Shown: positions 2,210 to 5,600, counted from the stretch's first letter. The stretch is DNA of 7,924 bases from a virus (IMGVR_UViG_2526164602_000016), one strand, 5' to 3'. The notes: generated by a model from the letters alone, not told the origin. Numbers and translations: made by a program.

Positions 2210-2653
2210 ATGGGAAAAGGTGGCGGTAAGGCACACACGCCTCGTGAGGCGAAGGATAATCTCAAATCCACGCAGATGATGAGTGTGATTGATGCGATTG
2301 GTGAGGGACCGATAGAAGGTCCGGTGAAGGGACTGCAGAGTATTCTGGTGAACAAAACCCCACTGACGGACACGGACGGCAATCCCGTGATACACGGTGT
2401 GACCGCGGTCTGGCGTGCCGGGGAGCAGGAGCAGACACCACCGGAAGGCTTTGAGTCCTCCGGAGCTGAAACCGGACTGGGCGTGGAAGTGACGAAGGCA
2501 AAACCGGTGACGCGCACCATTACGTCCGCGAACATTGACCGCCTGCGGGTCACCTTCGGGGTGCAGTCACTGTTGGAGACCACCTCAAAGGGCGACCGTA
2601 ACCCCACGTCTGTCCGACTGCTGATTCAGTTGAGCGTAACGGTAAATGGATGA
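2210..2653 (+). CDS. J: Host specificity / central tail fibre protein J, N-terminal fragment ending at a frame break
   Basis: ATG at 2210 with an upstream GGGGAAGG Shine-Dalgarno-like sequence. Translation [39 protein letters not shown]... matches the lambda J N-terminus from memory. The frame ends at TGA 2651-2653 after ...[12 protein letters not shown], whereas the homologous continuation ([11 protein letters not shown]...) is in the -1 frame from about nt 2632. Confidence 0.85.
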
Positions 2654-5600
2654 CGGAAAAGGATGTCACCATTAACGGCAAGACCACCTCGCAGTTCCTG
2701 GCGTCGGTGATTCTGGATAATCTGCCGCCCCGGCCCTTTAACATCCGGATGGTCAGGGAGACGGCGGACAGCACCACGGACCAGCTGCAGAATAAGACGC
2801 TCTGGTCGTCATACACCGAAATCATCGATGTGAAACAGTGCTACCCGAACACGGCGATTGTGGGGCTGCAGGTGGATGCGGAGCAGTTTGGCGGTCAGCA
2901 GATGACGGTGAACTACCATATCCGCGGTCGCATCATCCAGGTGCCGTCAAACTATGACCCGGAAAAACGCACGTACAGCGGCATCTGGGACGGCAGCCTG
3001 AAACCGGCATACAGCAACAACCCGGCCTGGTGCCTGTGGGACATGCTGACTCACCCGCGCTACGGCATGGGAAAACGCCTGGGGGCGGCGGATGTGGACA
3101 AGTGGGCGCTGTATGCCATTGCGCAGTACTGCGACCAGACGGTCCCGGATGGTTTCGGGGGCACAGAGCCGCGGATGACTTTCAATGCGTACCTGTCACA
3201 ACAGCGTAAGGCGTGGGACGTTCTCAGTGATTTCTGCTCGGCGATGCGCTGTATGCCGGTATGGAACGGGCAGACGCTGACGTTTGTGCAGGACCGTCCG
3301 TCAGATGTGGTGTGGCCCTACACCAGCAGTGATGTGGTGGTGGATGATAACGGCGTGGGGTTTCGCTACAGCTTCAGCGCCCTGAAGGACCGCCACACGG
3401 CGGTGGAGGTGAATTACACCGACCCGCAGAACGGCTGGCAGACCTCCACGGAACTGGTGGAAGACCCGGAAGCCATACTGCGCTACGGACGCAACCTGCT
3501 GAAGATGGATGCGTTCGGCTGTACCAGTCGCGGTCAGGCCCACCGTGCCGGGCTGTGGGTGATAAAGACCGGACTGCTGGAAACGCAGACGGTGGATTTC
3601 ACGCTCGGGTCACAGGGGCTGCGTCACACACCCGGTGACATTATTGAAATCTGTGATAACGACTATGCCGGGACCATGACCGGCGGACGTATCCTGTCCA
3701 TCGATGCCGCCAGCCGCACCCTGACACTGGACCGTGAGGTGACCCTGCCGGAGACCGGTGCCGCCACGGTGAACCTGATTAACGGCAGCGGTAAGCCGGT
3801 GAGCGTGGCCATCACTGCACACCCCGCGCCGGACCGGATACAGGTCAGCACCCTGCCGGATGGCGTGGAGACATACGGTGTGTGGGGGCTCTCCCTGCCG
3901 TCACTGCGCCGTCGCCTGTTCCGCTGTGTCTCCGTCCGGGAAAACACGGACGGCACCTTTGCCATCACGGCGGTGCAGCACGTACCGGAAAAAGAAGCCA
4001 TCGTGGATAACGGGGCGCACTTTGACGGCGACCAGAGCGGCACCCTGAACAGCGTCATCCCTCCGGCAGTGCAGCACCTGACGGTGGAGGTGAGTGCAGC
4101 TGACAGCCAGTATCTGGCGCAGGCGAAATGGGACACGCCGCGGGTGGTGAAGGGCGTGCGCTTCAGTCTGCGCCTGACCAGTGGAAGCGGTCAGGACAGC
4201 CGTCTGGTGACCACCGCCATCACTGCGGATACAGAGCATCGTTTCAGTGGTCTGCCGCTCGGGGAATACACCCTGACGGTGCGGGCGATAAACAGCTATG
4301 GCCAGCAGGGTGAACCTGCCACCACCACCTTCCGGATTGCCGCACCGGCAGCACCGTCGCGGATTGAGCTGACGCCGGGCTATTTTCAGATAACCGCCAC
4401 GCCGCATCTTGCCGTTTATGACCCGACGGTACAGTTTGAGTTCTGGTTCTCGGAAAAGCGGATTGCGGATATCAGGCAGGTTGAAACCGCAGCCCGCTAT
4501 CTTGGCTCGGCGCTGTACTGGATAGCTGCCAGTATCAATATCAAACCGGGCCATGATTATTATTTTTATATCCGCAGTGTGAATACTGTTGGCAAATCGG
4601 CATTCGTGGAGGCTGTCGGTCGGGCGAGCGATGATGCGGAAGGTTACCTGGATTTTTTCAAAGGAGAAATCGGGAAAACACATCTGGCCCAGGAGCTGTG
4701 GACGCAGATTGATAACGGTCAGCTTGCGCCGGACCTGGCTGAAATCAGGACGTCCATTACGAATGTCAGCAATGAAATCACGCAGACCGTCAATAAAAAA
4801 CTGGAAAATCAGAGTGCGGCAATCCAGCAGATACAGAAAGTTCAGGTTGATACAAATAATAACCTGAACAGCATGTGGGCCGTGAAACTGCAGCAGATGC
4901 AGGACGGACGCCTTTATATTGCGGGTATCGGTGCCGGTATTGAGAATACGCCAGCAGGAATGCAGAGTCAGGTGCTGCTGGCGGCAGACAGGATTGCGAT
5001 GATTAATCCTGCGAATGGCAACACAAAGCCGATGTTTGTTGGTCAGGGCGATCAGATATTTATGAATGAAGTGTTCCTGAAATATCTGACGGCTCCCACC
5101 ATTACCAGCGGCGGTAATCCTCCGGCATTTTCCCTGACACCGGACGGGCGGCTGACGGCGAAAAATGCCGATATCAGCGGTAACGTGAATGCGAACTCCG
5201 GGACGCTCAACAACGTCACGATTAACGAGAACTGTCGGGTTCTGGGAAAATTGTCCGCGAACCAGATTGAAGGCGATCTCGTTAAAACAGTGGGCAAAGC
5301 TTTCCCCCGGGACTCCCGTGCACCGGAGCGGTGGCCATCAGGAACCATTACCGTCAGGGTTTATGACGATCAGCCGTTTGACCGGCAGATTGTTATTCCG
5401 GCGGTGGCATTCAGCGGCGCTAAACATGAGAAAGAGCATACTGATATTTACTCCTCATGCCGTCTGATAGTGCGGAAAAACGGTGCTGAAATTTATAACC
5501 GTACCGCGCTGGATAATACGCTGATTTACAGTGGTGTTATTGATATGCCTGCCGGTCACGGTCACATGACACTGGAGTTTTCGGTGTCAGCATGGCTGGT

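Follow-up and report, generated by a model that had tools for sequence, protein, structure and literature searches.

J Genes of Phage Lambda and of O157:H7 Prophages

Among the closest described systems is gpJ of phage lambda, the protein of tip attachment and host specificity (structures 8IYK, 8IYL, 8K35, 8XCG and 8XCI), which is encoded by a single ORF of 1132 codons. The gene analyzed here, from a lambdoid prophage of Escherichia coli O157:H7 TW11039, occupies the same gene position, carries the same series of Pfam families and has a similar length, but it is broken at codon 142. Lambda J shares 76% identity (residues 1–141) and 68% identity (residues 141–1131) with the two segments that tblastn recovered from the TW11039 sequence, and the spacer between I and J measures 342 nt in TW11039 versus 60 nt in lambda. 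Another is the intact J of the O157:H7 ECP19-198 prophage (WP_199558202.1), together with related A-type prophage copies, with a length of 1157 aa as compared with 1158 aa for the TW11039 protein once its frame is restored. In ECP19-198, K, I and the spacer that separates I from J are identical or nearly so to those of TW11039, while short allele patches differ at 2602–2650, 2793–2802 and about 3600–4277, and ECP19-198 has a C at 2632/2633 that TW11039 is without.

Frameshifted J genes are already well known from O157:H7 prophages, Sp15/VT1-Sakai being one example. In this Stx1 prophage, and likewise in related prophages of F8798 and M1300706002, a CCC run of J (3314–3316 of the TW11039 contig) is one C short, which shifts the frame, and J is annotated as a 'truncated protein by a mutation' in VT1-Sakai and as 'frameshifted' in M1300706002. 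This loss is certainly real, since it is common to several independent genomes; among the relatives compared it was located at about 3712 in L001, about 3817 in L002 and about 3816 in L003, and further frame changes of J were found at other positions in L003, L035 and L046. The VT1-Sakai lesion falls at about codon 370, which is a different site from the TW11039 break, and the CCC run is intact in TW11039. The prophages of the EC4115/TW14359/3-5-1 type represent another form of damage, with a J annotated as two partial pseudogenes; this J is a fusion of two alleles in which about 600 nt are duplicated (window 3121–3719), whereas the TW11039 lesion is a point deletion. The fusion J extends from 2710 to 6788 in the O157:H7 3-5-1 locus (L090), with the same pattern in EC4115, TW14359, SS17, SS52 and TR01, and it looks like the outcome of unequal recombination between co-resident J copies.

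Only three of the ten lambda-like prophages of Sakai keep all of their morphogenetic genes, and defective Sakai prophages are packaged and transferred through help from, or recombination with, other prophages (PMC2669165). Against this background, the TW11039 lesion finds its nearest analogue in the J frameshift of Sp15/VT1-Sakai and would be an event of that kind at another site, though possibly it is not a real feature.

Gene Content of the Contig and Identity of J

The window, by which we mean the whole stretch of DNA analyzed (7,924 bp), is the entire contig AKLW01000035.1 of assembly GCA_000267165.1 from TW11039. It contains the lambda-type tail module L-K-I-J-lom-stf of a lambdoid prophage, all on the plus strand, and both of its termini lie inside conserved prophage genes. 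Gene calls together with Pfam matches identified the 3′ part of L (from the contig start, where the gene is incomplete, to 535; Phage_tail_L), an intact K (546–1289; NLPC_P60) and an intact I (1286–1867; Lambda_tail_I), in an order that matches lambda and the O157:H7 relatives. J follows these three genes and precedes lom and the side tail fibre genes, for which gene calls and the annotation of relatives delimited an intact lom (5753–6352), an intact tail fibre N-terminal gene (6417–7730) and the start of the tail fibre C-terminal gene (7732–7924), which continues past the contig end.

J itself is present as two fragments. The 5′ fragment (2210–2653, frame 2) comprises 147 codons closed by a TGA at 2651–2653 and was deposited as EIO66596.1. 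The 3′ fragment (2650–5685, frame 1) comprises 1011 codons counted from the ATG at 2650, with homology to J beginning at 2629, while the depositor's call for this part covers 2872–5685 only (EIO66597.1). A total of six Pfam families scored above their cut-offs across the fragments, namely FNIII-A_GpJ, Phage-tail_3, Ig_J, Ig_J_second, Phage_Tail_Tip and Ig_GpJ_C, and an intact relative returned an identical list. The FNIII-A_GpJ domain is cut in two, with profile positions 3–60 of 126 in the 5′ fragment and 68–125 in the 3′ fragment, where this second half is followed by the remaining five families in the order given. A close intact relative matches chain J of 8IYK with an E value of 0. Domains, sequence and synteny agree with the assignment to lambda-type J made in the preliminary description of this DNA, and the gene is, as judged from its sequence, J by descent and a pseudogene as written.

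A Single Base Absent from Codon 142

The ORF listing and the translation agree that J is broken 147 codons from its start by the frame-2 stop at 2651–2653, and that frame 1 stays open between 2602 and 5685 with the ATG at 2650 as its earliest start codon, so the continuation of frame 1 for more than 1000 codons, noticed beforehand together with the break, was borne out. Both frames are open at 2602–2653, between the frame-1 TAA at 2599–2601 and the frame-2 TGA, and no other stretch would allow a −1 ribosomal shift to rescue J. Within the 147-residue product, residues 1–141 are authentic J and the final six (SVTVNG) stem from out-of-frame read-through. The frame switch was mapped by tblastn with the intact J proteins of lambda and of the O157:H7 strains ECP19-198 and PA20, as had been proposed: for all three, residues 1–141 aligned to 2210–2632 in frame 2 and residues from 141 to the end aligned to 2629–5682 in frame 1. 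Lambda J reads RLLVQIQRNGGWVT across this point in one frame, in agreement with the preliminary description.

Nucleotide alignments revealed that a single base is absent between 2632 and 2633, where the window reads CAGTTG-AGCGT and its relatives read CAGTTGCAGCGT; the indel lists and a table of 36 haplotypes gave the same site, which lies inside the interval of about 2630–2634 where the preliminary description had placed the join and its missing nucleotide. The absent base is the C of codon 142 (CAG, Gln), and the B-type alleles have CTT GAG there. The comparison with sister prophages, likewise proposed earlier, was made with a panel of 89 loci that consisted of 80 IMG/VR prophage contigs, seven loci from complete E. 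coli genomes, and the phages lambda and VT1-Sakai. All 89 related loci, which represent 36 haplotypes, contain 61 nt over the segment equivalent to 2596–2655, as compared with 60 nt in the window, and none of them is broken here. When one C is put back, an uninterrupted ORF of 1158 codons results, and 1140 aligned positions of its product agree with the intact J of ECP19-198 (98% identity). In place of the single uninterrupted frame of about 1130–1165 codons expected of a functional gene, the window holds a split of 147 and 1011 codons, a lesion that disables the gene when it is set against its intact close homologues. The frame break is a true difference from every homologue compared and not a chance ORF pattern.

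The deletion was also searched for more broadly. No copy of it was found by megablast in 5,426 complete E. coli genomes, in which the best match over 75 nt reached 93.4% and all matches listed span one base more than the query, and exact-pattern scans found none in the GTDB representative genomes, IMG/VR or the JGI metagenomes. An exact look-up of the 147-aa product gave a record for AKLW01000035.1 only. Compared with 90 related loci, the contig shows 0 private substitutions, the deletion being its sole private feature.

Allelic Variation and Mosaicism around the Break

Two allele types occur at this position in O157:H7 prophages, the A-type being CAG TTG CAG CGT AAC GGT AAC TGG GTG and the B-type CAG CTT GAG CGT GGT GGT AAA TGG ATG. 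The informative sites of the window between 2602 and 2650 read, in order, B, B, A, B, B, A, A, deletion, A, A, A, B and B, while the neighbouring informative sites at 2551–2593 and 2934–3489 carry no B-type bases. The haplotype of the left patch (CGTAACCCCACGTCTG) is absent from the fetched loci and from IMG/VR. The right-hand hybrid (AGCGTAACGGTAAATGGATGAC) has one match, the IMG/VR contig L091, in which the C is present just upstream (TTGCAGCGT). Among about 15,000 J copies of 5,426 finished genomes, the hybrid AAC GGT AAA TGG ATG did not occur once; it has been seen in two draft contigs only, the window and L091. The segment 2596–2655 as a whole is hypervariable (36 haplotypes among 89 loci) within an otherwise conserved N-terminal region of J, with the variable residues following the patterns N-[PHL]-[STA]-[SET] and N-G-[NKGRS]-W-[VM].

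As a control for mosaicism, the window and finished-genome loci were painted by exact matches to the 90-locus panel. The window required 3.7 exact-match segments per kb, as against 3.8 in PA20, 5.2 in ESDR8, 2.8 in strain 9000 and 3.1 in F8798, with lower values in ECP19-198 (1.7), VT1-Sakai (1.5) and M1300706002 (1.1). The painting of the window is within the range of finished loci, suggesting that the contig is not visibly more chimeric than real loci, and conversion patches of 10–80 nt separate finished O157:H7 alleles too. In its sequence the contig therefore looks like an ordinary natural mosaic allele.

Over its whole length, the contig matches its best complete E. coli genome at no more than 98.0% overall, despite the clonal nature of O157:H7 and its many finished genomes. 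The differences from the nearest copies are gathered in blocks at 2602–2650, about 3600–4277, 5664–5773 and both contig ends. Each base of the contig also occurs in another allele, which makes the locus a pure recombinant of known alleles.

Mutation or Consensus Error

With a confidence that is slightly above even, we read J of this TW11039 prophage as a pseudogene produced by a real, private one-base deletion. According to this reading, a base lost from codon 142, midway through the FNIII-A domain, would have turned J into a pseudogene: translation from the true start would end at residue 147, leaving the other 88% of J in a different frame without an efficient way to be made. The event would be recent, because the rest of J and its neighbours are still intact, and the deletion would add one more case of decay to the known pool of defective O157 prophages. 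The deletion lies outside a homopolymer and so away from the usual sites of 454 errors, and Illumina reads were among the assembly input beside 454. We infer that the deletion belongs to the DNA of the strain and not just to the consensus, and that this prophage is unable to build a tail tip of its own.

The serious competitor, to which we assign an appreciable probability that nevertheless stays below one half, is a consensus error of the draft, with J intact in the strain as CAGTTGCAGCGT or CAGCTTGAGCGT. The genome announcement of TW11039, which is its sole mention in the literature searched, reports a 5.6-Mb draft of 2012 in 71 contigs, and the assemblies of the project were made from Illumina reads alone (Velvet) or from Illumina reads plus 454 3-kb paired ends (Celera assembler) (PMC3593324); its contig count of 71 assigns TW11039 to the hybrid group. 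The source contig of 7.9 kb thus comes from a 71-contig 454 and Illumina Celera draft and consists wholly of repeat-family prophage sequence, which favours an error. The J segment is multi-copy, with matches in 4,486 of the 5,426 complete E. coli genomes at a median of 3 and a maximum of 14 places per genome, and the tail module typically matches 8–14 places per O157:H7 genome among the genomes listed. An error could have arisen if reads of a co-resident A-type allele (CAG-TTGCAGCGT) and a B-type allele (CAGCTTG-AGCGT) were piled together. In a gapped alignment the two alleles differ by two compensating 1-nt gaps, and a call of 'gap' in both columns gives exactly the CAGTTGAGCGT of the window.

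Several further observations fit an error. Both the A-type and the B-type alleles are present in O157:H7 genomes, and the A/B alternation is found at 2602–2650, around the deletion; the A/B hybrid haplotype is one that the finished-genome J copies do not contain. The deletion occurs in no other sequence searched, and as the only private feature of a contig with 0 private substitutions it fits an error better than a mutation, since substitutions normally outnumber indels. The shortness of the contig, its origin in a 2012 hybrid draft and the lack of a second sequence with the deletion give a consensus error its appreciable probability.

On the other side, the contig is no more mosaic than the finished-genome loci, and short conversion patches (10–80 nt) occur among finished O157:H7 alleles. 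A novel combination is not surprising in a 60-nt stretch with 36 haplotypes among 89 loci. A mixture of reads predicts B-type bases at 2551–2593 and 2934–3489, yet there are none, the sequence context is not a homopolymer, and the assembly size of 5.6 Mb suggests little collapse of repeats. The A/B alternation and the absence of complete-genome matches above 98% had at first seemed to speak strongly for a collapsed-repeat chimera; weakened as the best explanation by the painting control and the 36 natural haplotypes, it was kept as the main rival to a real deletion.

Could the Broken Frame Still Yield J?

A further possibility is that the deletion is real and that the tail tip nonetheless works in two pieces, the 147-aa and 1011-aa products being linked by termination and reinitiation at the ATGA of 2650–2653. 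Such a stop/start overlap is indeed present in the sequence, and frame 1 is open from 2602 with the ATG at 2650 as its first start. This ATG, however, is the Met codon of a natural K-W-M-T allele, and the overlap is thus a by-product of the shift. The predicted pairing to the Shine-Dalgarno sequence is weak at the ATG, with −3.1 kcal/mol versus −7.4 kcal/mol at the true start of J, the cut splits the FNIII-A domain (positions 60 to 68 of the 126 in the profile), the residues Q-R-N-G-K-W are lost, and a two-piece J at this point was found in no relative. We consider a working two-piece J very improbable; were it true, the gpJ hub would tolerate a break within its FNIII-A domain.

The scan of 2602–2653 returned 0 heptamers of the form X XXY YYZ and 0 runs of five or more identical bases. 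The one heptamer nearby, A AAG GGC (2587), precedes the frame-1 TAA of 2599–2601, and in every J gene it simply encodes S-K-G. No frame change at this site was seen in any of the 89 relatives or in the complete E. coli genomes (n = 5,426). Programmed −1 ribosomal frameshifting or transcriptional slippage to a full-length J, although −1 is the direction that a rescue of J would need, is rejected as having next to no likelihood, since the region offers no usable heptamer and no homopolymer and the 89 relatives are in frame here, so that none needs recoding and nothing conserved points to it; the preliminary description, which had called programmed frameshifting unlikely for want of a slippery heptamer, reached the same view.

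Consequences for the Prophage

In lambda, gpJ starts (nucleates) the assembly of the tail tip, as established by lambda genetics. A J-null phage should therefore be entirely tail-less, which goes beyond the failure to adsorb that the preliminary description expected of an interrupted J. If the deletion is real, the TW11039 prophage would depend on co-resident prophages for its tail tip; lambdoid prophages with near-identical tail modules in the same cell could mask the loss, either through J provided in trans or through recombination, as shown for defective Sakai prophages (PMC2669165). It would also be one more private lesion among the defective lambdoid prophages of O157:H7, a lineage in which several sites of J have suffered independent breaks. 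If the deletion is instead an error, it would serve as a warning against taking a frame break for biology, without a check of the reads, when it lies on a short contig of repeat-family sequence from an old draft.

Features of the I–J Spacer

The spacer between I and J (1868–2209, 342 nt) is 100% conserved in many prophage loci. On its minus strand, a near-consensus promoter, TTCACA-16-TATAAT, was observed from 2004 to 1977, and a hairpin plus T7 terminator from 1897 to 1881, about 80 nt past the promoter. This arrangement suggests a putative antisense small transcript, about 95 nt long and including a CA-rich stretch (AACAAAAACAAC), within 2004–1871 of the minus strand. A scan of the window against Rfam gave no family at threshold, and the candidate transcript does not coincide in position with AgvB or AsxR, whose places in lambdoid prophages are different ones. 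The PA20 prophage has sodC in this spacer, encoded on the minus strand, which marks the I–J spacer as a moron insertion site. Just upstream of J, a GC-rich hairpin of about 19 bp was found at 2066–2115 (AAAACCCCGGTATC...GATACCGGGGTTTCTCTTT, −32 kcal/mol). It shares the conservation of the spacer, and it may serve to terminate or attenuate transcription between I and J.
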